Shown: piece by piece, positions 6,101 through 64,000 of the stretch | Numbering within the stretch: the first letter of the stretch is position 1 | How the letters are laid out: each line of letters starts with the position of its first letter | Assembly: GCF_965641715.1 (NCBI RefSeq) | Contig: NZ_OZ282453.1 | Source: Escherichia coli | Lineage (GTDB): Bacteria; Pseudomonadota; Gammaproteobacteria; Enterobacterales; Enterobacteriaceae | Direction: 5' to 3' (one strand) | Length of the DNA: 64,000 nucleotides | Position numbers and translations under genes: made by a program | Notes under the pieces: generated by a model | What the model saw: only the letters and a program-made list of their open reading frames with translations | Database searches by the model: none | Told to the model about the DNA's origin: nothing

Positions 6101-6716
6101 ACTGGAACTCGGCGGCTTTGAATCGCAGTGGGAACCGGTGTTGACCGAGTGGATCACGGCTGTCCTCCAGGCGCCGCTCAATGAAACGGGTGTTAGCCTG
6201 AGTCAGCTTTCCGACCGCGATAAACAGGTGGAGATGGAGTTTTATCTGCCGATTAGTGAACCGCTTATCGCCAGTCAGCTTGATACGTTAATCCGCCAGT
6301 TTGACCCGCTATCCGCAGGCTGCCCGCCGCTGGAGTTCATGCAGGTACGTGGCATGTTAAAAGGCTTTATCGACCTGGTGTTCCGCCACGAAGGGCGTTA
6401 TTACCTGCTTGACTATAAATCCAACTGGTTGGGTGAAGACAGTTCGGCTTACACCCAACAGGCTATGGCGGCGGCAATGCAGGCACACCGCTATGATCTG
6501 CAATATCAGCTTTATACCCTGGCGCTGCATCGTTATCTGCGCCATCGCATTGCTGATTACGACTATGAGCGCCACTTTGGCGGCGTTATTTATCTGTTCC
6601 TGCGTGGCGTTGATAAAGAACATCCGCAACAGGGGATTTACACAACCCGACCCAACGCCGGGTTGATTGCCCTGATGGATGAGATGTTTGCCGGTATGAC
6701 CCTGGAGGAGGCGTAA
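3174..6716 (+). CDS. recB: RecBCD helicase/nuclease subunit RecB
   Basis: ORF track 3165-6716; likely true start at [10 protein letters not shown] (3174); Walker A GTGKT; overlaps ptrA stop by 8 nt. Confidence 0.95.
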
Positions 6717-8542
6717 TGAAATTGCAAAAGCAATTACTGGAAGCTGTGGAGCACAAACAGCTACGCCCGCTGGATGTGCAATTTGCCCTGACCGTGGCGG
6801 GAGATGAACATCCTGCCGTCACCATCGCGGCGGCACTGTTAAGTCATGATGCCGGAGAGGGACACGTTTGTTTGCCGCTTTCACGACTGGAAAATAACGA
6901 GGCGTCGCATCCGCTGTTGGCGACCTGTGTCAGTGAAATCGGTGAGCTACAAAATTGGGAAGAATGCTTGTTGGCTTCTCAAGCGGTCAGCAGGGGAGAT
7001 GAACCCACGCCGATGATCCTCTGTGACGATCGTCTTTATTTGAATCGCATGTGGTGTAACGAGCGGACGGTAGCGCGCTTCTTCAATGAGGTGAATCATG
7101 CCATCGAGGTGGATGAAGCCTTGTTGGCGCAAACCCTGGATAAACTCTTTCCGACTGGCGATGAAATTAACTGGCAAAAAGTTGCGGCGGCAGTGGCGCT
7201 GACGCGGCGGATCTCGGTGATTTCCGGCGGCCCTGGCACCGGTAAAACGACCACCGTAGCGAAGTTGCTGGCAGCGTTAATTCAAATGGCAGACGGCGAA
7301 CGCTGCCGTATCCGTCTGGCTGCACCAACGGGTAAAGCTGCCGCGCGCTTAACCGAATCTCTCGGCAAGGCTTTGCGACAGTTACCGCTGACCGATGAAC
7401 AAAAGAAACGCATTCCGGAAGATGCCAGCACTTTGCACCGATTGCTGGGCGCGCAGCCGGGTAGCCAGCGTTTACGTCATCATGCCGGTAACCCGCTGCA
7501 TCTTGATGTGCTGGTGGTAGATGAAGCGTCAATGATCGATCTGCCTATGATGTCGAGACTGATCGACGCCTTGCCCGATCATGCGCGAGTGATCTTTCTC
7601 GGCGATCGTGATCAACTGGCCTCGGTTGAGGCTGGGGCTGTGCTGGGCGATATCTGCGCTTATGCCAACGCGGGCTTTACCGCCGAGCGTGCCAGGCAGC
7701 TAAGCCGCCTGACGGGGACTCACGTTCCGGCAGGAACTGGCACAGAAGCGGCATCTTTGCGCGACAGTCTCTGCCTGCTGCAAAAAAGCTATCGTTTCGG
7801 CAGCGATTCTGGCATTGGTCAGTTAGCTGCGGCGATCAACTGTGGTGATAAAACGGCAGTGAAAACCGTTTTTCAGCAGGATTTTACTGATATCGAAAAA
7901 CGACTTTTACAGAGCGGCGAAGATTATATTGCGATGCTTGAGGAAGCTCTTGCGGGTTACGGACGTTATCTGGATCTGCTGCAAGCGCGTGCCGAGCCGG
8001 ATTTAATCATTCAGGCGTTCAATGAGTACCAGCTTTTGTGCGCCCTGCGGGAAGGGCCATTTGGCGTGGCTGGACTGAATGAGCGAATTGAGCAGTTTAT
8101 GCAACAGAAGCGCAAAATTCATCGTAATCCGCACTCTCGTTGGTACGAAGGCCGACCGGTGATGATTGCCCGTAATGACAGCGCGCTTGGGTTGTTTAAT
8201 GGCGATATCGGTATTGCGCTGGATCGCGGGCAGGGGACGCGCGTCTGGTTTGCGATGCCGGACGGCAATATTAAGTCTGTGCAACCGAGTCGCTTGCCAG
8301 AGCACGAAACTACGTGGGCGATGACGGTACATAAATCGCAGGGATCGGAGTTCGACCATGCGGCGTTGATTTTACCGAGCCAACGCACGCCGGTAGTAAC
8401 GCGAGAGCTGGTATACACCGCGGTGACCCGCGCGCGTCGCCGTCTGTCGCTGTATGCCGATGAGCGTATATTAAGTGCGGCAATCGCCACTCGTACTGAG
8501 CGGCGCAGTGGTCTGGCGGCGTTGTTTAGTTCGCGGGAATAA
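6716..8542 (+). CDS. recD: RecBCD helicase subunit RecD
   Basis: 608 aa; Walker [11 protein letters not shown]; start ATG overlaps recB stop (TAATG). Confidence 0.95.
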
Positions 8543-8550
8543 ACGTAATT

Positions 8551-8591
8551 GCCGGATGCGACGCACGAGTGTTACGCCTGCCGCATCCGGC
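8551..8591. repeat. REP-like palindromic element between convergent recD and argA
   Basis: gccggatgcgacgc...cgcatccggc inverted repeat typical of enterobacterial REP units. Confidence 0.6.
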
Positions 8592-8603
8592 GATTTTCAT
8601 CGC

Positions 8604-9935
8604 TTACCCTAAATCCGCCATCAACACTTTGGATTTACGCTGGTAGTTGTACAACTGCTTTTTGCTCTCGGGCAGTAAATCAATATCCACCGGGGTAAAT
8701 CCACGTTCCTGGAACCAGTGAATACTGCGCGTGGTCAGCACAAACAATTTGCTTAAGCCGCTCTGCTTCGCCTGAGCGGCAATGCGTTCCAGCAGAACCT
8801 CGCCCCGTGATGAGCTGCGGTAATCCGGGTGAACTGCCACACAGGCCATTTCCCCAATCTTCTCTTCCGGGAACGGATAGAGCGCGGCGCAGGCAATAGT
8901 CGTGTTATCGCGCTGAATAATGGTGAATTTGTCGATTTCCATCTCCAGCTGCTCGCGAGAACGGCGTACCAGAATACCTTGCTGCTCCAGCGGGCGAATC
9001 AACTCCAGAATACCGCCGATATCGTTGATTGTTGCGCGACGAATCTGCTCGGCGCTTTCCATCACAATCTGCGTACCGATACCGTCGCGTGAGAACAACT
9101 CTTGCAACAGCGCGCCATCTTCCTGATAACTGATTAAATGACAGCGACGCACGCCGCTGCGGCAGGCTTTCACTGCGCCACGCAAAAAGCGCACCGTACC
9201 GGAGTTGTAATCGCCTTTCTCTTCCTGGGCTTCTACCCGCGCTTGCGCTTCGTTAGGGAAAAGTTCGGAGACAATATCACCGTCGTCATTAGTGACGCCC
9301 TGGGAAGAGCAAAAACCAATCATCTTTTCAGCTTTCAGTTTGATGGCCAGTTGAGTGGCAATCTCTTCCGAGGTCAGATTAAAGCTCTCGCCAGTGACTG
9401 AAACAGCGACCGGCCCCATTAGCACTATTGCACCGCTGTCCAGTTGACGATGGATCGCGTCTTCATCAATCCGCCGGATACGCCCGCTATGGCAGTAATC
9501 CACGCCGTCATCGACGCCCAGCGGCTGGGCAATAATAAAATTGCCACTGACGACGTTGATATGCGCGCCCTGTAGCGGCGTGTTATTGAGACTCATCGAC
9601 AGGCGAGCAGTAATATCCAGTTGCAATGTTCCCGCAGCCTGCTTCACCAGTTCCAGTGTTTTGGCGTCGGTCACACGTATATTCTTGTGATACAGCGGTT
9701 CGTGGTGATGCGCAGCCAGATTTGCGTCGATCTGCGGACGTGCGCCATAGACCACCACCAGACGGATGCCGAGGCTGTGCAACAACCCGATATCATTAAC
9801 GATACTGGAGAAATTCTCATGCTCAATGGCTTCACCGCCGAGCATGATGACAAACGTTTTTCCCCGGTGGGTATTGATATAGGGAACCGAATGGCGGAAT
9901 CCCTCGACCAGCTCGGTTTTACGTTCCTTTACCAC
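8604..9935 (-). CDS. argA: N-acetylglutamate synthase
   Basis: ORF track gives 8604-10001; protein matches ArgA from [12 protein letters not shown], implying a GTG start at 9935 (443 aa). Confidence 0.9.
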
Positions 9936-10166
9936 GGCACACCTCTTTGCATTATTATTCGAATTTATTGTATTTTTATTCTGTTTTTTCGCAGGGTGCA
10001 AGTGTAAATTTTATGCGAGAGCGACTTTTTTATCAGTAATGGCGTGAATATAAAAAGAATGTTTACCGTTTATTAGATGACAGATTATGCGTCTTTCGCT
10101 AAAGTTTCCGGTCAAATTAGTCGTTTACTTGTTACACAGCTTAGATTTCTTTTGCTCGGGAGAGGC

Positions 10167-11420
10167 ATGTCAGGATCCAACACTGCAATCAGCCGTCGTC
10201 GTTTACTGCAAGGCGCGGGTGCCATGTGGCTATTGAGCGTAAGTCAGGTCAGTCTGGCTGCGGTCAGCCAGGTCGTGGCGGTGCGCGTCTGGCCTGCGTC
10301 CAGCTACACCCGCGTGACGGTAGAATCAAATCGTCAGCTGAAATATAAGCAGTTCGCGTTGAGTAACCCGGAACGCGTGGTGGTGGATATCGAAGATGTA
10401 AACCTGAACTCGGTACTCAAGGGGATGGCGGCACAAATTCGTGCAGACGACCCGTTCATCAAGTCGGCGCGCGTCGGGCAATTTGACCCGCAAACCGTAC
10501 GGATGGTTTTTGAATTAAAGCAAAACGTAAAACCGCAGCTGTTTGCCCTTGCGCCGGTCGCCGGGTTTAAAGAGCGTCTGGTGATGGACCTCTATCCGGC
10601 CAATGCACAGGATATGCAGGACCCGCTGCTGGCGCTGCTGGAGGATTACAACAAAGGCGACCTCGAAAAGCAGGTGCCGCCAGCGCAAAGTGGTCCACAA
10701 CCAGGTAAAGCAGGGCGCGATCGTCCGATTGTCATTATGCTTGACCCTGGCCACGGTGGCGAAGACTCCGGTGCGGTGGGGAAATACAAAACGCGCGAAA
10801 AAGATGTGGTATTGCAAATAGCTCGCCGTTTGCGCTCTCTGATCGAGAAAGAGGGCAATATGAAGGTGTACATGACGCGCAATGAAGACATCTTCATTCC
10901 GTTGCAAGTGCGCGTAGCAAAAGCTCAGAAACAGCGTGCTGACCTGTTTGTCTCTATCCATGCCGACGCCTTTACCAGTCGCCAGCCGAGCGGTTCCTCG
11001 GTGTTTGCGCTCTCAACCAAAGGTGCAACCAGTACTGCGGCAAAATATCTGGCACAAACCCAGAACGCCTCCGACTTGATTGGTGGCGTGAGCAAAAGCG
11101 GTGACCGCTATGTCGACCACACCATGTTCGATATGGTGCAGTCGCTGACCATTGCTGACAGCCTTAAGTTTGGTAAAGCGGTGCTGAATAAGCTCGGTAA
11201 AATCAACAAGCTGCATAAAAATCAAGTTGAACAGGCCGGGTTTGCCGTACTAAAGGCACCAGATATTCCCTCCATTCTGGTCGAAACGGCGTTTATCAGT
11301 AACGTTGAGGAAGAGCGTAAACTGAAAACGGCGACCTTCCAGCAGGAAGTTGCGGAGTCTATTCTTGCGGGAATTAAAGCGTATTTTGCCGATGGGGCGA
11401 CCCTGGCGAGAAGGGGATGA
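10167..11420 (+). CDS. amiC: N-acetylmuramoyl-L-alanine amidase AmiC (Tat-exported)
   Basis: ORF track starts 10077; likely true start at [18 protein letters not shown] (twin-arginine signal) at 10167; amidase_3 catalytic domain. Confidence 0.9.
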
Positions 11421-11447
11421 TAAAAAGGCGCTGAATGGCGCTTTTTT
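11421..11447 (+). terminator. Intrinsic terminator after amiC
   Basis: aaaaaggcgc-tgaatg-gcgctttttt hairpin flanked by A and T runs immediately after amiC stop. Confidence 0.5.
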
Positions 11448-11454
11448 ATAGGAG

Positions 11455-11490
11455 ACCAGAAACAAAAAAACACCCGTTAGGGTGTTCAAT
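11455..11490 (-). terminator. Intrinsic terminator downstream of the tRNA-fMet operon
   Basis: On minus strand: aacaccc-taacg-ggtgtt followed by a T-run, directly 3' of the last tRNA copy. Confidence 0.5.
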
Positions 11491-11493
11491 AAT

Positions 11494-11570
<77 letters not shown>

Positions 11571-11603
11571 TCACCGTACTGCTTTTACTTCATCAAATTT
11601 GAT

Positions 11604-11680
<77 letters not shown>

Positions 11681-11713
11681 TCACCGTACTGCTTTACTTC
11701 ATCAAATTTTAAT

Positions 11714-11790
<77 letters not shown>

Positions 11791-11998
11791 TCCGTGGATG
11801 CGCACTATACTCCGCTCGCGTTTTCATGCAACCTTTTTTTTACCCCGATCACGGATCTGGCATGATTTTGAACAAAAACAAATCACTAAAGCCTATTTTT
11901 TGTGCAAAATTTGCGTCAGGGAGAGGCTGCTCATTTCATTAAACGCGGTGGTTTGTTATCTTCGTTGCGCCTTATTTTTTAACCTGAAGAAGAGAACA

Positions 11999-13096
11999 AT
12001 GAAAGGACGTTGGGTAAAGTACCTTCTTATGGGCACGGTTGTGGCAATGCTTGCCGCCTGCTCTTCCAAACCAACCGATCGCGGACAGCAATATAAAGAC
12101 GGGAAATTTACCCAGCCTTTCTCTCTGGTGAACCAGCCAGATGCCGTTGGCGCGCCGATTAACGCCGGTGATTTTGCCGAGCAAATTAACCATATCCGTA
12201 ATTCGTCACCGCGTCTGTATGGCAACCAGAGTAATGTTTATAACGCGGTGCAAGAGTGGCTGCGCGCAGGCGGTGATACCCGCAATATGCGTCAGTTCGG
12301 CATTGATGCCTGGCAGATGGAAGGTGCCGACAACTATGGTAACGTGCAGTTTACAGGCTATTACACGCCGGTAATTCAGGCGCGCCATACCCGCCAGGGC
12401 GAGTTCCAGTATCCTATTTACCGTATGCCGCCAAAACGTGGTCGTCTGCCGTCTCGTGCGGAGATCTACGCGGGGGCATTGAGTGATAAATATATTCTCG
12501 CTTACAGTAACTCCCTGATGGATAACTTCATTATGGATGTGCAGGGTAGTGGGTATATCGACTTTGGTGATGGCAGTCCGCTTAACTTTTTCAGCTATGC
12601 AGGGAAAAACGGTCATGCCTATCGCAGCATTGGTAAGGTGCTGATCGACCGTGGCGAAGTGAAAAAAGAAGATATGTCGATGCAGGCGATTCGTCACTGG
12701 GGCGAAACACACAGTGAAGCCGAGGTTCGCGAGCTGCTGGAACAGAACCCGTCTTTCGTCTTCTTTAAACCGCAATCTTTTGCACCGGTGAAAGGGGCAA
12801 GTGCGGTGCCGCTGGTTGGCCGTGCTTCTGTTGCCTCTGATCGTTCAATTATTCCGCCAGGTACAACCTTGCTGGCAGAAGTGCCGCTGCTGGATAATAA
12901 CGGCAAATTTAATGGTCAGTATGAACTGCGTCTGATGGTGGCACTGGATGTCGGTGGCGCAATCAAAGGCCAACACTTCGATATCTATCAAGGGATCGGG
13001 CCGGAAGCCGGACACCGCGCAGGTTGGTACAACCACTATGGACGGGTTTGGGTGCTGAAAACGGCTCCGGGCGCAGGTAACGTCTTTAGCGGCTGA
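11999..13096 (+). CDS. mltA: Membrane-bound lytic murein transglycosylase A (lipoprotein)
   Basis: ORF track starts 11717 and runs through the tRNA genes; true start at MKGRWVKYLLMGTVVAMLAACSS (lipobox) at 11999. Confidence 0.9.
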   Translation: MKGRWVKYLLMGTVVAMLAACSSKPTDRGQQYKDGKFTQPFSLVNQPDAVGAPINAGDFAEQINHIRNSSPRLYGNQSNVYNAVQEWLRAGGDTRNMRQFGIDAWQMEGADNYGNVQFTGYYTPVIQARHTRQGEFQYPIYRMPPKRGRLPSRAEIYAGALSDKYILAYSNSLMDNFIMDVQGSGYIDFGDGSPLNFFSYAGKNGHAYRSIGKVLIDRGEVKKEDMSMQAIRHWGETHSEAEVRELLEQNPSFVFFKPQSFAPVKGASAVPLVGRASVASDRSIIPPGTTLLAEVPLLDNNGKFNGQYELRLMVALDVGGAIKGQHFDIYQGIGPEAGHRAGWYNHYGRVWVLKTAPGAGNVFSG

Positions 13097-57010: not shown

Positions 57011-57149
57011 TTAAACATTTATAAGCGTTATAAATGGGTGGAACCTGTGAAGACTTCTACTCATTTATATTCTTTGTCGTCTCTGAAAAACATCCATTTT
57101 GCCCATCCTGAACTAATCATTATCATTCTCTACAAATTCTGTGGCGTTA

Positions 57150-57348
57150 ATTTTTCGTTGGAGTGAAAATTATTGCGGTAAAGTTTGGTAGATTTTAGTT
57201 TGTATAGAGTTATTTTAAATATTTACCTTTTTAATCAATGGGTTAAGTGCTCTTTAACATAATGGATGTGTTGTTTGTGTGATACTGTAAAGTTGGTAGA
57301 TTGTGACTGGCTTAAAAAATCATTAATTAATAATAGGTTATGTTTAGA
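57150..57348 (+). promoter_or_regulatory. CRISPR leader (AT-rich, promoter and integration-host-factor region)
   Basis: AT-rich stretch ending ...tggtagattgtgactggcttaaaaaatcattaattaataataggttatgtttaga immediately 5' of the first repeat. Confidence 0.65.
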
Positions 57349-58353
57349 GAGTTCCCCGCGCCAGCGGGGATAAACCGGGCGACCGGCAGGCGGCCTATGC
57401 GTTTTTCACGAGTTCCCCGCGCCAGCGGGGATAAACCGGGGCATTAGAATAACTTAAATGGAAAAAGAAAGAGTTCCCCGCGCCAGCGGGGATAAACCGG
57501 CCTTATCTCTGCTTGGATTCTCTGCTGATGTGAGTTCCCCGCGCCAGCGGGGATAAACCGCGGCGCACACGTTGTATTTGTGCTGCCTATGCGAGTTCCC
57601 CGCGCCAGCGGGGATAAACCGCCCACCAGCGCGTTTTTTGCCGGGGCCATAGTGAGTTCCCCGCGCCAGCGGGGATAAACCGGCAATGCTCGTACGCCGT
57701 CTCACTCCGCGTGAGAGTTCCCCGCGCCAGCGGGGATAAACCGCGGGGGCGCGGGGTGTGGACGCATTCACAGCAGAGTTCCCCGCGCCAGCGGGGATAA
57801 ACCGTATATGCAGTGCTGACAGACCGGGGGGCGCAAGAGTTCCCCGCGCCAGCGGGGATAAACCGGCAACGCAGGAACCGCAGGCGGTTCGTCATCTGAG
57901 TTCCCCGCGCCAGCGGGGATAAACCGCTTGCCGCGCCAGGGTATTTTTGTGTGGTCGTGAGTTCCCCGCGCCAGCGGGGATAAACCGTCCGCAACAACTC
58001 AGAGAACCAGACACCAAGCGAGTTCCCCGCGCCAGCGGGGATAAACCGTTTCGCCGCCGGGAAAATTTATATTAACGTTGGAGTTCCCCGCGCCAGCGGG
58101 GATAAACCGCGAAGCACGTCGGGGACCGTAAGGCGTTTGAAGAGTTCCCCGCGCCAGCGGGGATAAACCGCAATCCACGCCGAAGCGCTGGAAATGGAAA
58201 AAGAGTTCCCCGCGCCAGCGGGGATAAACCGTTTACCTGCTCGGTGATATCGTCCTGCAAATCGAGTTCCCCGCGCCAGCGGGGATAAACCGGGTACAAA
58301 AGAGGCCCCATTCTGGCAGGGCTCAAGTTCCCCGCGCCAGCGGGGATAAACCA
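57349..58353 (+). CRISPR. Type I-E CRISPR array: 17 repeats of 29 bp, 16 spacers of 32 bp
   Basis: Repeat GAGTTCCCCGCGCCAGCGGGGATAAACCG with exact 61-bp period from 57349; terminal repeat degenerate (AAGTTCCCCGCGCCAGCGGGGATAAACCA, 58325-58353); leader at the 57349 end sets + orientation. Confidence 0.97.
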
Positions 58354-58824
58354 CCATATAACCCATTATCTCTTTCTCAAGTTTTTATATTAGCAGTACT
58401 CGTAATAAGCAACATATCCACGTAACACCTCATGTTCAGAATAGCTCGCCATATATGAGAAGTTCACAATTATCGATACAAAAAATTAAATTTAATCAAA
58501 GTGTTATTTGTATGATGCTTAAACCGTTAAGAAATTTTCATATATTATTTTTTTTAATGTTGAATTAATGTCTATTAATTTTTTCTTCAGGATAATAGTT
58601 TGTTTTTTAAGCTTGTTATTCATTGATTAAGTAATAAATCAGAAAAATTGTCTTTGTTTTGAGGCTAATGAGTGGTTTTACATAACCGCCTCTATACGCT
58701 GTTGATGAATAGTTCTTATGAATAAAGATATCCAGTTCATACTTTAAGTGAAAATTGATAAAGTGCGATTCGTATTGTCTTTTATTCTAAAGACATCGAG
58801 TGTAGTTAATATTCCTTGTAAAAA

Positions 58825-58884
58825 CAGGGATAAACCGAACTAGTTAAAGTTTTTATTATGTTCCCCGCGTCAGCGGGGATAACC
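58825..58884 (+). CRISPR. Degenerate CRISPR repeat remnant (decayed second mini-array)
   Basis: cagggataaaccg (58825-58837), 22-nt spacer-like gap, then gttccccgcgtcagcggggataacc (58860-58884); preceded by a second AT-rich leader-like stretch. Confidence 0.6.
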
Positions 58885-58931
58885 ATTCAGGTATGTTCAG
58901 GCCGGGCTGTTTCCCGCCCGGCCTTCCTCAC

Positions 58932-60410
58932 TTACGCATTCGACCAGCTCTGGATCGAATCCGCATTTCCCAATTCCCCATGCATCACTTCATACGATTT
59001 TTTCAGAATCACATCAGTATGTTTGGTTAGGTCTTTGAAAATGCCTTTATTCATCGCGTCGTAGCGTTTGGCATTGCTCTCAATCGGTATAAAGATATCT
59101 TTCACGCGAACCATTTTATCGACAGCCGTTGCGTAATCCGGGTATAGCCCCAGACCTACCGCTGTATTAATCGCTGCCCCCAGACTTGCACAACCGTTAA
59201 TGGCGTTACGTCGTGCCGGAAGGTTGAACACGTCGGCAAAAATCTGCATAAACAGATCGCTGTTCGAACCGCCGCCAGTAATGATTACATGCTTCGCAAA
59301 GTGATTCATTTCATTACACATATTGTCGTAATTGTTCTTCAGCGTCAGCGCCACGCTTTCCAGTATCGAACGATATATCCATGCGTAATCCATGCTGGAA
59401 TCAAAGCCGATCATAATCCCGCGTTTGTACGGTTCCCACGGATTGGTCAGCCAGTCCAGCACCGTCATCAGCCCATTACAGCCAGGTGGCACACTAGAGG
59501 CTTTCTTGTTGAGTAAATCTTCCGGTGAAAGATCCTGCGCCCTGGCATCCTGAATTAACGACTCGCCTAACATGTCGCGCAGCCAGCTCACCGTCCACAT
59601 GCCTTTGCGAATACCGTAACCTTCATACAGCAATGTTTGCGGAATAGAAGACATAATCGGCCAGTACGCCACCGGATCTTTCGGCAGTGCTTTGCCGTTC
59701 ATCATCAATGCGATGTAAGTGCCAAGAGAAATTACCGCAGTTTCATCATCCAGTAATCCGGCCCCCAGAGCTTCTACCGGTTTATCACTGGTGGTACAAA
59801 CAACCGGCAGCCCTGCCGGGAAATGTGTCGCCAGCGCGGCTTGTGGTGTGATCTGTCCAAGAACAGTGCCTGGCATTTGCACATCAAACAGCATATGACG
59901 GGGGATATTAAACTTCTCCATGACTGCGGCATCTTCACTCCATGCCCAGCTCTTATAATCCACCGGCCACTGACCAAAATAGTTGGCGATATTGTCTTTA
60001 AACTCGCCGGTTAAGCGATGCGTCAGATAACCCGAAAAAGAGGTGACATAGGCCACGTCAGGATTAGTGTGTTCGTAGGGACGCGTTACGCGTGCATCCT
60101 GCCAGCTAATCAATGGCGCAGCTGGCGTGCCATCGGCTTTCAATAACGCACGGCAGCAACGGATGGATCCCAGACCAATAACGACAATATCTTCTTTATT
60201 CCCGGCAAACTGACTCATCAAATCGTGACCGGCAAAACATAATGATGCCCATAAATCGTCGTCAGGATGTTCTGCGGTATCGGCATCTGGCGTGTGCATC
60301 GGCTGCAATAAACCTTTGCCTTCGCAAACCACGTTACCTTCCAGATCGTACATCACCACTTTTGTGCTCTGACTTCCGCCATCAATCCCTATGATGTATT
60401 TCTTCGACAT
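58932..60410 (-). CDS. ygcE: FGGY-family carbohydrate kinase, substrate unknown
   Basis: 492 aa with FGGY N- and C-terminal domains (GIDGGSQSTK start). Confidence 0.85.
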   Translation of the reverse strand: MSKKYIIGIDGGSQSTKVVMYDLEGNVVCEGKGLLQPMHTPDADTAEHPDDDLWASLCFAGHDLMSQFAGNKEDIVVIGLGSIRCCRALLKADGTPAAPLISWQDARVTRPYEHTNPDVAYVTSFSGYLTHRLTGEFKDNIANYFGQWPVDYKSWAWSEDAAVMEKFNIPRHMLFDVQMPGTVLGQITPQAALATHFPAGLPVVCTTSDKPVEALGAGLLDDETAVISLGTYIALMMNGKALPKDPVAYWPIMSSIPQTLLYEGYGIRKGMWTVSWLRDMLGESLIQDARAQDLSPEDLLNKKASSVPPGCNGLMTVLDWLTNPWEPYKRGIMIGFDSSMDYAWIYRSILESVALTLKNNYDNMCNEMNHFAKHVIITGGGSNSDLFMQIFADVFNLPARRNAINGCASLGAAINTAVGLGLYPDYATAVDKMVRVKDIFIPIESNAKRYDAMNKGIFKDLTKHTDVILKKSYEVMHGELGNADSIQSWSNA

Positions 60411-60436
60411 GATTTTTCTCCTGTAATTTTCCTGGC

Positions 60437-61714
60437 TTACTTGCTGCTAGCCATTGCGGGGGCGCTATCAGCAGTACGAATTTTTTGGAACAGCAAAAAG
60501 GTAAAGACAATCACCATGGCAAGCGCCGCCATGCCCATCAGCCACATATTGCGGTAGGCTTCTGCTGCGGGCAGGGTGTCTTGCCAGTGGCCGATAATGG
60601 GGTAAACGAAGACATCCGGCAGGAATCCAATCACCGAGCAAATACCTACCGTGGTGCCCATAATGTAAGACGGTGTTCTCGCTTCGCCAGGGCAGGCCCA
60701 GTACAGCCCGCGTGAGGCGTAACAGGTGAATCCCAGCAGTAAAATCAGGCCAATCCCCATCGCGACCGATTGCGGGTTAGAGTTCGTGACGAGCAGGGCA
60801 GTTAACGCCAGCAGGCCGAGTACGGAAAGGATTTGGATCACGCGGGTAGGGGATTTCACTTTGCTGTAGGTGGTGATTATGCCGCCAAGTGGGCCGCACA
60901 GCGCGCGGAAGATTTTGTTGATCACAATCCCCATGTAGCTCGCCGCCACCAGCGACATGCCGTACATTTCGGTCAGATAGTTGGTGGAGTAACTCAGAAT
61001 GGCGTAGATGGTGAAGACACCAAAAATCACCATGCTGCAATACCAGGTGGTACTGATACGCAAAACGGCCAGGATATCGCTAAGCTGGAATGACTGTTTT
61101 TCTTCGTTATTGGCACTGCGCTGGTTGTTGTTATCGCTAACAAAAAACCAGCACAGAATCCCCAACAAGATGTAAACCACACTATAGATGATAATGACCG
61201 TTTTCAGGCTGGTGCTGTCATCCGGTGCAAAGCGAGAAAAGACCCACATGGTAAACACTGCCAGCGACATTACACCGACGCCGCGCAGCCCTTCCATCCA
61301 GCCCATAATTTTCCCTTGCTCGCTATGATCGCCAAGCAACGAGGCGGCTTTAATCGACACCGACCACAGCATTAAAATCGTTGTTATCGCAAAGGCGACC
61401 TGAATACAGAGCATTACCCACAGCGGTGGATACGTTGCCATTAACAGACCCAGTAATCCGGTAATGATCATCGCGGAAGTAATCATTTTGCGGTGTGAAA
61501 ATTTATCGGCAATAACGCCGCTGGGGGCATAAAGAATAATAGCTGCAATACCAAAGGTACTCATTATTAAACCTATCTCGGTATTGCTGAATCCCATAAA
61601 TTTCGCCATGGGAATTTGATAAATATAACGTAAATAAGCCAGGTCGAAACTAACGCCGCCGCTAAAACTAATTATCGCGAGGGTTATCCAACGGCGATAT
61701 GAGTTGTGTTGCAT
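60437..61714 (-). CDS. yqcE: MFS transporter, substrate unknown
   Basis: 425 aa, 12 predicted TM helices. Confidence 0.85.
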   Translation of the reverse strand: MQHNSYRRWITLAIISFSGGVSFDLAYLRYIYQIPMAKFMGFSNTEIGLIMSTFGIAAIILYAPSGVIADKFSHRKMITSAMIITGLLGLLMATYPPLWVMLCIQVAFAITTILMLWSVSIKAASLLGDHSEQGKIMGWMEGLRGVGVMSLAVFTMWVFSRFAPDDSTSLKTVIIIYSVVYILLGILCWFFVSDNNNQRSANNEEKQSFQLSDILAVLRISTTWYCSMVIFGVFTIYAILSYSTNYLTEMYGMSLVAASYMGIVINKIFRALCGPLGGIITTYSKVKSPTRVIQILSVLGLLALTALLVTNSNPQSVAMGIGLILLLGFTCYASRGLYWACPGEARTPSYIMGTTVGICSVIGFLPDVFVYPIIGHWQDTLPAAEAYRNMWLMGMAALAMVIVFTFLLFQKIRTADSAPAMASSK

Positions 61715-61960
61715 ATCGTATTCCCATTTGTAATAGACAAAAAAAAGAGAAAAGTAAGCCGCCCTTTCAGGTGGATTACTTTTCTCAGGTCTCTAGTAAT
61801 TGAAATAATAAATAACATGGAAAGCAGAGGTGTTGTGTGAGAGTAATCACGCTTCTGCTTTTTAAAACTATTTGATAATGCGAATATCACACTGTGATTA
61901 CGATCACATTAGCAGTTATGTCCTTATGCTACAAATTATCTCCAGTTACCAGAGATAATG

Positions 61961-62009
61961 AGAAAGGTAACTTCCCTCTCGCGGGGGAAGTTACCTTTCT
62001 TTTTTTTTG
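61961..62009 (+). terminator. Terminator-like hairpin plus T9 in the ygcW 5' leader (candidate attenuator)
   Basis: agaaaggtaacttccc-tctcgcgg-gggaagttacctttct (16-bp perfect stem) followed by ttttttttt; ends 24 nt upstream of the ygcW ATG. Confidence 0.6.
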
Positions 62010-62032
62010 CCTTACGGAAATTGGAGCTAACT

Positions 62033-62818
62033 ATGTCAATCGAATCTCTCAATACGTTCTCAATGGATTTTTTCTCCCTGAAAGGTAAAACCGCAATTGT
62101 TACCGGCGGGAATAGCGGTTTAGGCCAGGCATTTGCCATGGCGTTGGCCAAAGCAGGCGCAAATGTCTTTATTCCAAGTTTTGTCAAAGATAACGGCGAA
62201 ACAAAGGAAATGATTGAAAAACAGGGTGTTGAGGTGGACTTCATGCAGGTGGATATCACCGCAGAAGGCGCGCCGCAGAAGATAATCGCCGCCTGTTGCG
62301 AACGTTTCGGTACCGTCGATATTCTGGTTAACAATGCCGGTATTTGTAAGCTGAATAAGGTGCTGGACTTCGGTCGTGCCGACTGGGACCCGATGATTGA
62401 TGTGAACCTGACCGCCGCATTCGAGTTAAGCTATGAAGCGGCAAAAATTATGATCCCGCAGAAAAGCGGTAAAATCATTAATATCTGTTCATTATTCTCT
62501 TACTTAGGTGGACAATGGTCACCTGCATATTCTGCCACTAAACATGCTCTTGCCGGATTCACCAAAGCTTATTGTGATGAACTAGGTCAATATAATATTC
62601 AGGTAAATGGTATTGCCCCTGGCTATTATGCAACAGATATTACGCTGGCGACACGCAGTAATCCAGAAACCAATCAGCGCGTTCTTGATCATATTCCAGC
62701 AAACCGTTGGGGCGATACTCAGGATTTAATGGGCGCAGCCGTATTCCTCGCAAGTCAGGCATCGAATTATGTCAACGGGCATTTATTAGTGGTCGATGGC
62801 GGTTATTTAGTGCGCTAA
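62033..62818 (+). CDS. ygcW: Short-chain dehydrogenase/reductase (KduD/FabG-like)
   Basis: ORF track starts 61958; likely true start MSIESLNTFSMDFF at 62033 with GGAG RBS; TGGNSGLG Rossmann motif and YxxxK. Confidence 0.85.
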   Translation: MSIESLNTFSMDFFSLKGKTAIVTGGNSGLGQAFAMALAKAGANVFIPSFVKDNGETKEMIEKQGVEVDFMQVDITAEGAPQKIIAACCERFGTVDILVNNAGICKLNKVLDFGRADWDPMIDVNLTAAFELSYEAAKIMIPQKSGKIINICSLFSYLGGQWSPAYSATKHALAGFTKAYCDELGQYNIQVNGIAPGYYATDITLATRSNPETNQRVLDHIPANRWGDTQDLMGAAVFLASQASNYVNGHLLVVDGGYLVR

Positions 62819-62887
62819 TCCATAACGGTGGTTTCTGTTTTCTCTTATTAATGATTATTCCATTTTTATTATCAGGAAGGAATTACT

Positions 62888-64000
62888 ATGTCTTTATCTC
62901 GCGCAGCGATTGTCGACCAGCTAAAGGAAATTGTTGGTGCAGATCGCGTAATTACCGATGAAACAGTATTAAAGAAGAACAGTATTGACCGTTTTCGTAA
63001 ATTTCCGGATATTCATGGCATTTATACTTTGCCGATTCCGGCAGCGGTCGTAAAACTCGGTTCCACAGAGCAAGTATCCCGTGTGCTGAATTTTATGAAT
63101 GCGCACAAAATTAACGGTGTGCCGCGTACCGGTGCTTCCGCCACCGAAGGTGGGCTGGAAACTGTTGTAGAAAACTCGGTGGTGCTCGACGGTTCCGCCA
63201 TGAATCAAATCATTAATATTGATATTGAGAATATGCAGGCGACGGCGCAATGTGGCGTTCCGCTGGAGGTGCTGGAAAACGCGTTGCGTGAAAAAGGTTA
63301 CACCACGGGGCATTCTCCGCAGTCAAAGCCGCTGGCGCAGATGGGCGGCCTGGTAGCAACTCGCAGTATCGGGCAGTTCTCCACACTCTACGGCGCAATC
63401 GAAGATATGGTCGTTGGTCTGGAGGCAGTGTTGGCAGATGGCACCGTCACACGCATTAAAAACGTGCCACGCCGCGCGGCTGGCCCGGACATTCGTCACA
63501 TCATCATCGGCAACGAAGGTGCATTGTGCTATATCACTGAAGTAACAGTGAAAATCTTTAAATTCACCCCGGAAAACAACCTCTTCTACGGCTATATCCT
63601 GGAAGACATGAAAACCGGCTTCAACATCCTGCGTGAAATCATGGTGGAAGGGTATCGTCCGTCGATCGCTCGTTTGTATGACGCTGAAGATGGCACCCAA
63701 CACTTCACCCATTTTGCCGACGGAAAATGCGTGCTGATCTTTATGGCTGAAGGTAACCCTCGCATTGCGAAGGCGACGGGCGAAGGGATTGCGGAAATCG
63801 TTGCCCGCTACCCGCAATGCCAACGCGTGGACAGCAAGCTGATCGAAACTTGGTTTAACAACCTGAACTGGGGACCGGATAAAGTGGCTGCCGAACGTGT
63901 GCAGATCCTCAAAACCGGCAACATGGGCTTTACTACCGAAGTGTCCGGCTGCTGGAGCTGTATCCACGAAATCTACGAAAGCGTTATTAACCGTATTCGT
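62888..64000 (+). CDS. ygcU: FAD-linked oxidoreductase (GlcD / FAD-binding type 4 family), 3'-truncated by window end
   Basis: Open frame from ATG 62888 (MSLSRAAIVDQLKEIVGADRVITDE...) to the window edge; absent from the ORF track because no stop lies inside the window. Confidence 0.8.
   Translation, partial: MSLSRAAIVDQLKEIVGADRVITDETVLKKNSIDRFRKFPDIHGIYTLPIPAAVVKLGSTEQVSRVLNFMNAHKINGVPRTGASATEGGLETVVENSVVLDGSAMNQIINIDIENMQATAQCGVPLEVLENALREKGYTTGHSPQSKPLAQMGGLVATRSIGQFSTLYGAIEDMVVGLEAVLADGTVTRIKNVPRRAAGPDIRHIIIGNEGALCYITEVTVKIFKFTPENNLFYGYILEDMKTGFNILREIMVEGYRPSIARLYDAEDGTQHFTHFADGKCVLIFMAEGNPRIAKATGEGIAEIVARYPQCQRVDSKLIETWFNNLNWGPDKVAAERVQILKTGNMGFTTEVSGCWSCIHEIYESVINRIR

Follow-up and report, generated by a model that had tools for sequence, protein, structure and literature searches.

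A CRP-controlled gene island of Escherichia coli with paired leader RNAs, possibly for the catabolism of a quaternary-ammonium compound

Positions 58,932 to 64,000 of a 64-kb stretch of Escherichia coli DNA (contig NZ_OZ282453.1; the whole stretch is called the window here) hold two divergent gene pairs, yqcE-ygcE and ygcW-ygcU, which are part of a larger island of y-genes. Our analysis suggests that the island encodes a pathway, controlled by CRP and by the GlpP-family protein YgcP, that acts on a small hydroxylated quaternary-ammonium compound of the betaine or choline type with a glycerol-like terminal diol, and not on an ordinary sugar. We hold this reading tentatively, at a little short of an even balance. 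It is drawn from the conservation of the enzyme genes as a module across phyla, from the transporter and methyltransferase genes that accompany the module there, and from a leader RNA common to both; it is this shared leader that most strongly ties the betaine-type transporters and the methyltransferase to the enzymes in function. The genes within the window are as follows.

58932 to 60410, minus strand: ygcE, an FGGY-family kinase of 492 residues (open reading frame (ORF) and Pfam domains FGGY_N/FGGY_C).
60437 to 61714, minus strand: yqcE, an MFS transporter of 425 residues (ORF and MFS_1 domain), co-transcribed with ygcE.
62033 to 62818, plus strand: ygcW, a short-chain dehydrogenase/reductase (SDR) oxidoreductase of 261 residues, KduD/gluconate-5-dehydrogenase-like (ORF and Pfam adh_short).
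62888 to 64000, plus strand: ygcU, an FAD-linked flavoprotein (FAD_binding_4) of the type of alkyl-dihydroxyacetone-phosphate (alkyl-DHAP) synthase, AGPS; the window holds the 5' 371 of its 484 codons and the rest lies beyond.

The ORFs and Pfam domains agree with the arrangement given in the original prediction, a kinase and a transporter on the minus strand facing a divergent dehydrogenase and flavoprotein on the plus strand. The description of a four-gene cluster, on the other hand, proved to be an artefact of the window end: the E. coli unit comprises ten genes, from ygcE to ygcN, of which the window shows only a part. Full-length ygcU (484 codons) was confirmed in the E. coli locus L001, and beyond the window the plus-strand operon runs ygcW-ygcU-ygcS-ygcR-ygcQ, after which comes the convergent unit ygcN-ygcO-ygcP. 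YgcS (outside the window, L001 19121-20530) is an MFS transporter of the Sugar_tr family. By domain scan, YgcR and YgcQ are the beta and alpha subunits of an electron-transferring flavoprotein (ETF), YgcN resembles ETF:quinone oxidoreductase and carries the ETFQO ubiquinone-binding domain, and YgcO is a FixX-like ferredoxin with a 4Fe-4S domain. YgcP, outside the window but inside the island, matches PF04309, the 'glycerol-3-phosphate responsive antiterminator' family (G3P_antiterm), with an E-value of 1.4e-62. A 5.6-kb block (best identity 98.8%) was matched in 5407 of 5426 complete E. coli genomes with identical gene names, and the position of the island, between queE and queD, is the same in nearly all of the ~30 Enterobacteriaceae loci that were retrieved.

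That this is a catabolic-looking, divergently transcribed cluster of y-genes without an assigned pathway or substrate held up throughout. The K-12 RefSeq and UniProt labels for the four window proteins are 'putative' and 'uncharacterized', respectively; none of the four reaches an NCBIfam equivalog cut-off, and none has a solved structure in the PDB. Evidence for a defined substrate, which was to decide against the original prediction, was looked for, and neither the databases nor the searchable full-text literature assigns one to the ygc genes. The literature that names these genes covers CRP sites, ygcE as a neutral integration site, CRISPR typing, YgcS overexpression and ygcU as a candidate gene. 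In a paper of March 2026, ygcU was a failed candidate for a D-serine deaminase, and YgcU was left as an unassigned FAD-binding oxidoreductase (PMC13012123). YgcS had been picked as a homologue of the niacin/nicotinamide transporter NiaP, and its overexpression raised the production of nicotinamide mononucleotide (PMC8601175). We also noted similarity of YgcS to the MFS subfamilies of aromatic-acid/H+ symporters and organic-cation (SLC22/SV2-like) transporters.

Gene context was compared in 80 genome loci, 51 of them non-enteric, obtained by protein search and by scanning one genome for each species; many of the non-enteric loci are truncated contigs. Orthologues of YgcE with 49-72% identity are present in five or more phyla, with hosts among the Clostridia, Lachnospiraceae, Enterococcus, Vagococcus, Listeria, halophilic Bacillaceae, Spirochaetes, Actinobacteria, Anaerolineae and Deltaproteobacteria. 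In Firmicutes, Spirochaetes, Actinobacteria and Chloroflexi the core of kinase, SDR, flavoprotein and ETF shows 50-78% identity. A YgcW orthologue (59-78% identity) adjoins the kinase in all but one of the non-enteric loci, and most of these also have a YgcU orthologue (55-72% identity). Kinase, SDR and AGPS-like flavoprotein co-occur in nearly all 80 loci, and the ETF beta and alpha genes join them in many. Strict anaerobes are over-represented among the carriers of the module; aerobic halophilic Bacilli and Listeria possess the kinase, SDR and flavoprotein without adjacent ETF genes, while the FixCX-like genes and YgcS are confined to the Enterobacteriaceae. A YgcP orthologue (42-62% identity) is encoded in 24 of the 51 non-enteric loci, and in eight its place is taken by an RpiR/SIS regulator. 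All-against-all clustering of the ORFs near the module found no further conserved enzyme, and no aldolase, isomerase, epimerase, sugar-type ABC transporter or phosphotransferase system (PTS); the three enzymes and the ETF must therefore suffice. Nearby RecQ-like helicases, aminotransferases and sigma-54 regulators are locus-specific and were dropped as pathway members.

Several further features of the module were seen in subsets of loci. In Enterobacter Ag1, Buttiauxella and Cedecea (L019, L020, L025, L027, L035) YgcR is 45-48%, YgcQ 36-41% and YgcN 51-53% identical, against 83-88% for YgcE, YgcW and YgcU in the same loci; the ETF set thus diverges far faster, and may have been replaced there by a distant copy. 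In many loci of anaerobes (L043, L045, L046, L049, L050, L066, L070 and L072-L074) a second FAD oxidase, of the GlcD/LctD type ([TS]EHG), directly follows the first ETF genes, and several of these loci carry a second ETF alpha/beta pair of their own. From this second oxidase one may suspect that the pathway yields, further down, a D-2-hydroxyacid, for instance D-lactate or glycolate. A gene for a SurE-type 5'/3'-nucleotidase/phosphatase stands directly 3' of the kinase gene in five Caproiciproducens-type loci (L061, L068, L072-L074), a hint that a later step of the pathway takes the phosphate off again. In the Actinobacteria (L081-L083) a beta-hydroxyacid dehydrogenase, similar to tartronate-semialdehyde reductase and L-threonate dehydrogenase with scores below the cut-offs, is encoded immediately upstream of the SDR and kinase, and in L081 and L083 its gene follows one of the MttB family. 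A peptide/opine-type ABC transporter is found near the module in L082, L083 and L085, where a BCCT or Opu system would otherwise be expected.

The transporters conserved as neighbours of the module in the non-enteric loci are BCCT proteins (13 loci), OpuA/OpuC-type ABC systems with an OpuAC binding domain and a CBS-ATPase (16-17) and MFS proteins (13), among them a Listeria protein 48% identical to YqcE whose gene lies inside the module. A BCCT or OpuAC-type gene is located no more than 2.5 kb from the module in 21 of the 51 loci, often in the module's own operon (L043, L049, L052, L063, L065, L067, L068, L073-L075). All solved homologues of these BCCT and Opu transporters bind quaternary ammonium or sulfonium ligands, the ligands being glycine betaine, choline, carnitine, ergothioneine, dimethylsulfoniopropionate and trimethylamine. 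Full-length, uninterrupted genes of the non-pyrrolysine MttB family, whose members demethylate quaternary amines, are part of the operon in the Firmicute loci L054 and L097 and in L081 and L083 of the Actinobacteria. Given the high identities between the E. coli proteins and their orthologues (up to 78% for YgcW, 72% for YgcU and 62% for YgcP), it is parsimonious to infer that E. coli uses the same substrate as the loci with BCCT, Opu or MttB genes, or a very similar one.

The intergenic region between yqcE and ygcW contains two paralogous leader elements and two CRP-type sites.

61942 to 62008, plus strand: ygcW leader RNA, a 5' hairpin overlapping an intrinsic terminator with a run of nine U residues; covariance-model match of 72 bits.
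61740 to 61803, minus strand: yqcE leader RNA, a 5' hairpin overlapping an intrinsic terminator with a U-run; covariance-model match of 75.4 bits, E 1.7e-13.
61836 to 61851: CRP-type site 1, TGTGAGAGTAATCACG, serving the yqcE-ygcE promoter, with one mismatch to TGTGA-N6-TCACA.
61893 to 61908: CRP-type site 2, TGTGATTACGATCACA, serving the promoter of the ygcW operon, a perfect TGTGA-N6-TCACA.

In the ygcW leader a 7-bp 5' hairpin (61944-61950 with 61966-61972) overlaps the 19-bp stem of the terminator (61960-62001, from a terminator scan). In both leaders the 5' hairpin follows the pattern A-R-T-T-R-C-Y ... R-G-Y-A-A-Y-T, and its 3' arm is part of the terminator's 5' arm. The calculated folding energies are -34.2 kcal/mol (z -7.0) for the ygcW leader and -21.6 kcal/mol (z -4.4) for the yqcE leader, with the 5' hairpins alone being weak at -6.7 kcal/mol (ygcW leader) and -1.4 kcal/mol. 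With so strong a terminator and so weak a 5' hairpin, termination would be the default and a protein would be needed to switch it. The yqcE leader is kept in 14 enterobacterial genera, and to assess covariation 38 distinct leaders from six phyla were aligned. In this alignment the 5' hairpin is 96.6% paired, with 3 covarying pairs and none of 500 shuffles at the observed score, and the terminator is 86.9% paired, with 11 covarying pairs. Alignment columns 9/27/73 and 7/29/71 vary in threes, which is the signature of two mutually exclusive helices.

The covariance model has exactly two full-length matches within the window, and also matches leaders in ~30 non-enteric genome loci and 23 metagenome contigs. 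Fourteen of 37 metagenome matches to the leader pattern were rejected as chance when the covariance model gave no confirmation. Leader matches occur where a PF04309 gene is present, and the model found none in loci that carry an RpiR-type regulator instead. The search of Rfam 15 returned no leader match, with only a chance snoRNA match inside ygcE at E ≤ 1, and RefSeq E. coli genomes carry no annotation for the leader. In E. coli, blastn placed it at a median of two places per genome, and the matches listed overlie no annotated feature. In other phyla the leader directly precedes SDR/kinase and flavoprotein genes; it also directly precedes BCCT genes (L043, L046, L049, L075), Opu operons (L058, L106, L113, L122) and MttB-PanB-Opu operons (L104, L125, L091, L111, L115). 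These last operons come from lake and soda-lake metagenomes (in L104 at 6231-12097) and combine a non-pyrrolysine MttB and PanB with an OpuC-type ABC system. The PanB beside MttB scores above the NCBIfam cut-off for a true ketopantoate hydroxymethyltransferase.

CRP site 2 is the only perfect TGTGA-N6-TCACA in the window, and the TGTGA and TCAC half-sites of both sites are invariant across 14 enterobacterial genera. Each leader starts ~41.5 bp from the centre of its CRP site (at 61942 for the ygcW leader), a distance that would correspond to class II spacing. Crp activation of yqcE-ygcE has been reported (PMC8085971), and yqcE/ygcW is among the top-ranked CRP targets of PhyloScan (PMC1794230).

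We propose, by analogy with GlpP, that YgcP binds these leaders, which would make them a previously undescribed, cross-phylum RNA element for a GlpP paralogue in E. coli. Two features of a GlpP-type system are present, namely a PF04309 gene in the locus and a terminator leader near the promoter with an overlapping alternative structure. The Bacillus subtilis glp regulon, where GlpP and glycerol-3-phosphate (G3P) govern antitermination of glpD, glpFK and glpTQ, resembles the ygc system in its PF04309 antiterminator protein, in the succession of promoter, protein-binding region (proposed for ygc) and intrinsic terminator within the 5' untranslated region, and in an FGGY kinase that feeds an FAD-dependent dehydrogenation with catabolite control on top. 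The target design of GlpP has been described as a promoter, a GlpP site and an inherent terminator (PMC9604022); the layout of the ygc leaders agrees with that description. The ygc system differs in its added SDR, in an AGPS-type flavoprotein with ETF instead of GlpD, in BCCT, Opu or MFS transporters instead of GlpF/GlpT, in the use of CRP instead of CcpA, in its occurrence in Proteobacteria and in an effector expected to be other than G3P.

The sequence and predicted fold of YgcU identify it as an alkyl-DHAP-synthase-type flavoprotein and not a sugar oxidase. The protein has the FAD_binding_4 and FAD-oxidase_C domains of alkyl-DHAP synthase, and AGPS is its best sequence match in the PDB, with an E-value of 2.7e-40 against 4.9e-26 for the next family. 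Residues R262, Y398 and H438-H439-H440 align with Arg419, Tyr578 and the His615-617 loop of AGPS, and these Arg, Tyr and His-His-His residues are invariant in 37 of 37 YgcU orthologues. The top 28 PDB fold matches of the AF2 model (pLDDT 84) are all AGPS, with TM-scores of 0.78-0.82, and are followed by D-lactate dehydrogenases and the LctD-EtfAB complex. YgcU has 484 residues against 658 in AGPS; the alignment envelope begins at AGPS residue 194, and the N-terminal ~150-200 residues, which we take to contribute to the hydrophobic substrate/lipid tunnel, are absent.

A D-2-hydroxyacid substrate for YgcU appears unlikely, since its orthologues lack the GlcD-type metal-binding motif G-x-x-x-[ST]-E-H-G and have H-H-H-G instead (the co-located second oxidase has [TS]-E-H-G), and its score against the GlcD model is 113, with a cut-off of 568. 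The LctBCD system of Acetobacterium woodii is similar in that a PF01565/PF02913 flavoprotein is encoded beside ETF beta and alpha, and LctD (7qh2_C) is found among both the sequence and the fold matches of YgcU. LctD and GlcD-type enzymes differ by having the metal-binding [ST]-E-H where YgcU has HHH.

YgcE shows the two-domain FGGY_N and FGGY_C architecture (PF00370 at 1.5e-18 and PF02782 at 1.7e-22). Against the NCBIfam equivalogs for XylB, LsrK, GlpK, GntK, AraB, FucK and RhaB it remains below every cut-off, the best being XylB at 140.3 (cut-off 380), with LsrK at 138 (cut-off 528). Alignment with E. coli GlpK indicates that the equivalents of Arg83, Trp103 and the catalytic Asp245 are kept in at least 90% of ~50 orthologues; Glu84 of GlpK is not retained in the YgcE family, and Gln246 is replaced by an invariant Lys. 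The motif 'EHPDDDLW' of YgcE had been considered as a cation-binding feature and was dropped, as it aligns with the generic FGGY motif 'EHDPxxIW'. YgcW narrowly misses the NCBIfam cut-off for KduD (NF005390; 350.9 against 369) and also falls below that of TIGR01832 (277.7 against 338.85), consistent with a close paralogue of KduD rather than a member. Among solved structures 2-deoxy-D-gluconate 3-dehydrogenases come closest to it. The families nearest to YgcW, KduD and gluconate 5-dehydrogenase, convert R-CHOH-CH2OH to R-CO-CH2OH and back. YqcE has weak similarity to MFS subfamilies for anions and organophosphates, and is labelled 'sugar phosphate permease' by JGI.

From these elements a scheme can be proposed in which the two divergent class II CRP promoters fire at high cAMP and the leader of each transcript adopts the strong intrinsic terminator as its default fold. 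Carrying a phosphorylated intermediate of the pathway (the likely effector, by analogy with G3P and GlpP), YgcP would hold the weak 5' hairpin and so allow RNA polymerase to read through. The substrate would be taken up via YqcE and/or YgcS, or by BCCT or Opu ABC systems in other phyla; it is a matter of speculation whether the two different transporters present in many loci form a pair for substrate import and product export. YgcW would oxidise the secondary alcohol beside a terminal CH2OH and YgcE would phosphorylate that CH2OH, in either order, to give a 1-substituted dihydroxyacetone phosphate, X-CH2-CO-CH2-OP, which belongs to the substrate class of AGPS. By AGPS chemistry, in which a C1 carbanion adds to flavin N5, YgcU might then expel X to leave a triose phosphate at the level of DHAP, its flavin being re-oxidised through the ETF (YgcRQ) and then through the ETF:quinone oxidoreductase and ferredoxin (YgcNO). 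The conservation of the ETF suggests that the YgcU flavin is reduced at each turnover, that is, an oxidative cleavage to a 2-oxoaldehyde phosphate; a hydrolytic or reductive variant of the cleavage is conceivable in its place.

Candidate substrates are deacylated betaine-lipid head groups (glyceryl ethers, for example from diacylglyceryl-trimethylhomoserine, DGTS), a (2,3-dihydroxypropyl)trimethylammonium-type compound and glycerophosphocholine. A more specific proposal, which we regard as rather doubtful, is that the AGPS-type flavoenzyme works in the direction of breakdown and removes from a phosphorylated and oxidised glycerol moiety a betaine or trimethylammonium group that is bound to it through an ether or nitrogen link, yielding a triose phosphate together with free betaine or a methylamine. 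The substrate would then be a glyceryl-trimethylhomoserine head group of DGTS or a compound of the (2,3-dihydroxypropyl)trimethylammonium type, the GlpP paralogue would sense the phosphorylated intermediate, and the route would be common to relatives in gut, termite-gut, peat, soda-lake and halophilic bacteria.

Several points weigh against a quaternary-ammonium substrate and an AGPS-type cleavage. No natural compound that fits was identified, and canonical AGPS chemistry is redox-neutral, so that an ETF partner requires an oxidative or reductive variant to be assumed. BCCT, Opu and MttB genes are all missing from the island of E. coli, and the link to quaternary amines is transferred from the orthologous loci. 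The Opu, ProRac and MttB genes of the soda-lake loci stand in a convergent operon whose purpose might be the use of another betaine; the common leader is an argument that the operons are co-regulated and not that they act on one substrate. YgcW lies only 18 bits under the KduD model, which is compatible with a role in sugar-acid metabolism, and the MFS subfamilies closest to YqcE carry anions or organophosphates. Proteomics of Citrobacter amalonaticus CJ25 on choline and carnitine detected the Cai and Fix proteins on carnitine, and no FGGY kinase or AGPS-like protein was among the changed proteins (PMC12482172). The up-regulated ETF and SDR entries of that study could not be mapped to ygc genes. 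The species carries the island, and the data are weak negative evidence on choline and carnitine as the substrate.

The original prediction had called the gene composition typical of a sugar or sugar-acid utilisation locus. Such a locus would import a neutral polyol, ketose or sugar acid via YqcE/YgcS, oxidise it with YgcW and phosphorylate it with YgcE, and YgcU with the ETF would act like the FAD-dependent polyol-phosphate dehydrogenase of the EryA/EryB or GlpK/GlpD pathways. The FGGY kinase, the SDR that resembles KduD and gluconate 5-dehydrogenase and so narrowly misses KduD, and the restriction of the E. coli island to MFS transporters, with YgcS in the Sugar_tr family, all suit this explanation. 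So do a GlpP-type regulator, as in glycerol catabolism, the RpiR/SIS regulators of some loci, which are typically sensors of sugar phosphates, and CRP control, which is shared with carbon-source operons. We nevertheless consider an ordinary carbohydrate substrate unlikely. The orthologous loci carry BCCT, OpuA/OpuC-type or YqcE-like MFS transporters and MttB-family genes, so that three independent quaternary-amine families (BCCT, Opu and MttB) have an operon or a leader in common with the module, and no sugar-type transporter (ABC or PTS), isomerase, aldolase or epimerase is conserved with it in any phylum. YgcU, moreover, has the catalytic residues of AGPS and not those of GlpD or of D-2-hydroxyacid dehydrogenases. 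The Brucella erythritol pathway, in which EryA phosphorylates the polyol before an FAD-dependent oxidation by EryB, has the same order of reaction types; EryB, however, is GlpD-like and not AGPS-like, the isomerases EryC/H/I that the pathway needs have no ygc counterpart, and there is no link to betaine transporters.

Other explanations retain the glycerol backbone or the ETF and assign YgcU a different task. Glycerophosphocholine, or a related zwitterionic glycerophosphodiester, could be phosphorylated and oxidised at its free glycerol end, after which YgcU would expel phosphocholine from the DHAP diester so formed. No other natural molecule that combines glycerol with a quaternary ammonium group is as abundant as glycerophosphocholine; it would suit both the choline-headgroup binders BCCT and Opu and the organophosphate/anion-like YqcE, and the SurE-type phosphatase genes after the kinase in five loci would fit as well. 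Such a role is improbable given that the glycerophosphodiesterases GlpQ and UgpQ do this job without ATP, that no glycerophosphodiesterase or choline-utilisation gene is associated with the module and that the ETF requirement is left unexplained. About equally improbable is a reductive role as an anaerobic electron sink, with electrons passing from YgcNO via YgcRQ to YgcU, which would cleave a C1 substituent such as trimethylamine from an alpha-substituted ketone phosphate. YgcN, YgcO, YgcQ and YgcR belong to the same domain families as the FixCXBA-type ETF set, the presence of FixCX paralogues would be accounted for, and the enrichment of the module in strict anaerobes points the same way; aerobic halophilic Bacilli and Listeria, on the other hand, have the enzymes without an adjacent ETF, FixCX-like genes are absent outside the Enterobacteriaceae, and CRP activation and the kinase step suggest carbon assimilation. 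The caiTABCDE-fixABCX system of E. coli likewise joins the metabolism of a quaternary-ammonium compound, carnitine, to a dedicated ETF/ETF:quinone oxidoreductase/ferredoxin set and is also CRP-dependent, and its transporter CaiT is of the BCCT family that accompanies the ygc-type module in other phyla, but it relies on CoA-thioester chemistry and has no kinase, SDR or AGPS-type enzyme. E. coli FixABCX has been proposed as the electron supply for the carnitine pathway (PMC12482172).

A function in the synthesis or salvage of ether lipids seems very improbable. YgcU would here be a true alkyl-DHAP synthase, YgcW an alkyl/acyl-DHAP reductase and YgcE an alkylglycerol kinase, the same three activities as in the eukaryotic ether-lipid route. 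YgcU and AGPS have the same fold and the same two Pfam domains, YgcU has equivalents of Arg419, Tyr578 and His615-617, and an SDR and a kinase acting on a glycerol backbone complete the trio of reaction types. E. coli, however, makes no ether lipids. YgcU is without the N-terminal extension assumed to help form the lipid tunnel, has an ETF partner and is encoded in catabolite-controlled operons with importers of small solutes, not with lipid-synthesis genes. The favoured scheme of a quaternary-ammonium substrate differs from this route also in its proposed catabolic direction, with release of the C1 substituent, and in a substituent that would be polar or cationic rather than a fatty chain.

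On the side of ygcE the island is separated from queE by a CRISPR array with the following features.

57351 to 58352, plus strand: type I-E CRISPR array in canonical orientation, 17 perfect repeats (26-nt core) with a 61-bp period.
About 57050 to 57350, on the queE side of the array: AT-rich stretch ending at the first CRISPR repeat, read as the CRISPR leader.
58860 to 58885: degenerate solo CRISPR repeat with 3 mismatches, next to ygcE.
58900 to 58924: GC-rich 9-bp hairpin, 8 nt past the ygcE stop codon.

The stretch at 57050-57350 is presumed to be the leader on the rule that a CRISPR leader lies upstream of the canonical repeat. The leader-proximal end of the array faces away from the ygc genes, and the last repeat is 580 bp from the ygcE stop codon; the cluster does not, as had been stated, directly abut the array. 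Nor does it carry the leader hairpin, with the AT-rich leader on the queE side and the hairpin at ygcE following the stop codon. This hairpin folds with -23.9 kcal/mol (z -5.3), has no U-tract and is absent from the output of the terminator scan; it is probably a 3'-end stabiliser or weak terminator of yqcE-ygcE, not an element of the CRISPR leader. The AT-rich ~500 bp at 58353-58885 end in the degenerate repeat and look like a vestigial second CRISPR locus, made up of a leader and one repeat. Together the ygc island and the CRISPR array separate the queuosine-biosynthesis genes queE and queD in nearly all Enterobacteriaceae loci compared (L001 11340-24846; L010-L036), which suggests an old insertion between adjacent que genes.

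The components of the island are all of known kinds (an FGGY kinase, an SDR, a VAO-type flavoprotein with ETF, GlpP antitermination and CRP control), and it is their combination and the proposed catabolic use of AGPS chemistry that are new. To what was a known orphan cluster the analysis adds how far the island extends, the recurrence of its enzyme module across phyla, a connection to the transport and demethylation of quaternary amines, and a covarying leader RNA not described before. For ten conserved y-genes of E. coli, present in >99% of complete genomes, there is now a testable hypothesis and a short list of candidate substrates. The leader serves as a regulon tag, through which BCCT, Opu and MttB operons of uncultured bacteria are already connected with the enzyme genes, and is a potential reporter for the inducer. 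If the proposal is correct, a catabolic use of AGPS-type flavin chemistry would be new, and GlpP-type, protein-dependent antitermination would occur in Proteobacteria, with a conserved covarying leader that is absent from Rfam. The pathway would then also be a new entry in gut microbial quaternary-amine metabolism, a field that includes the production of trimethylamine.

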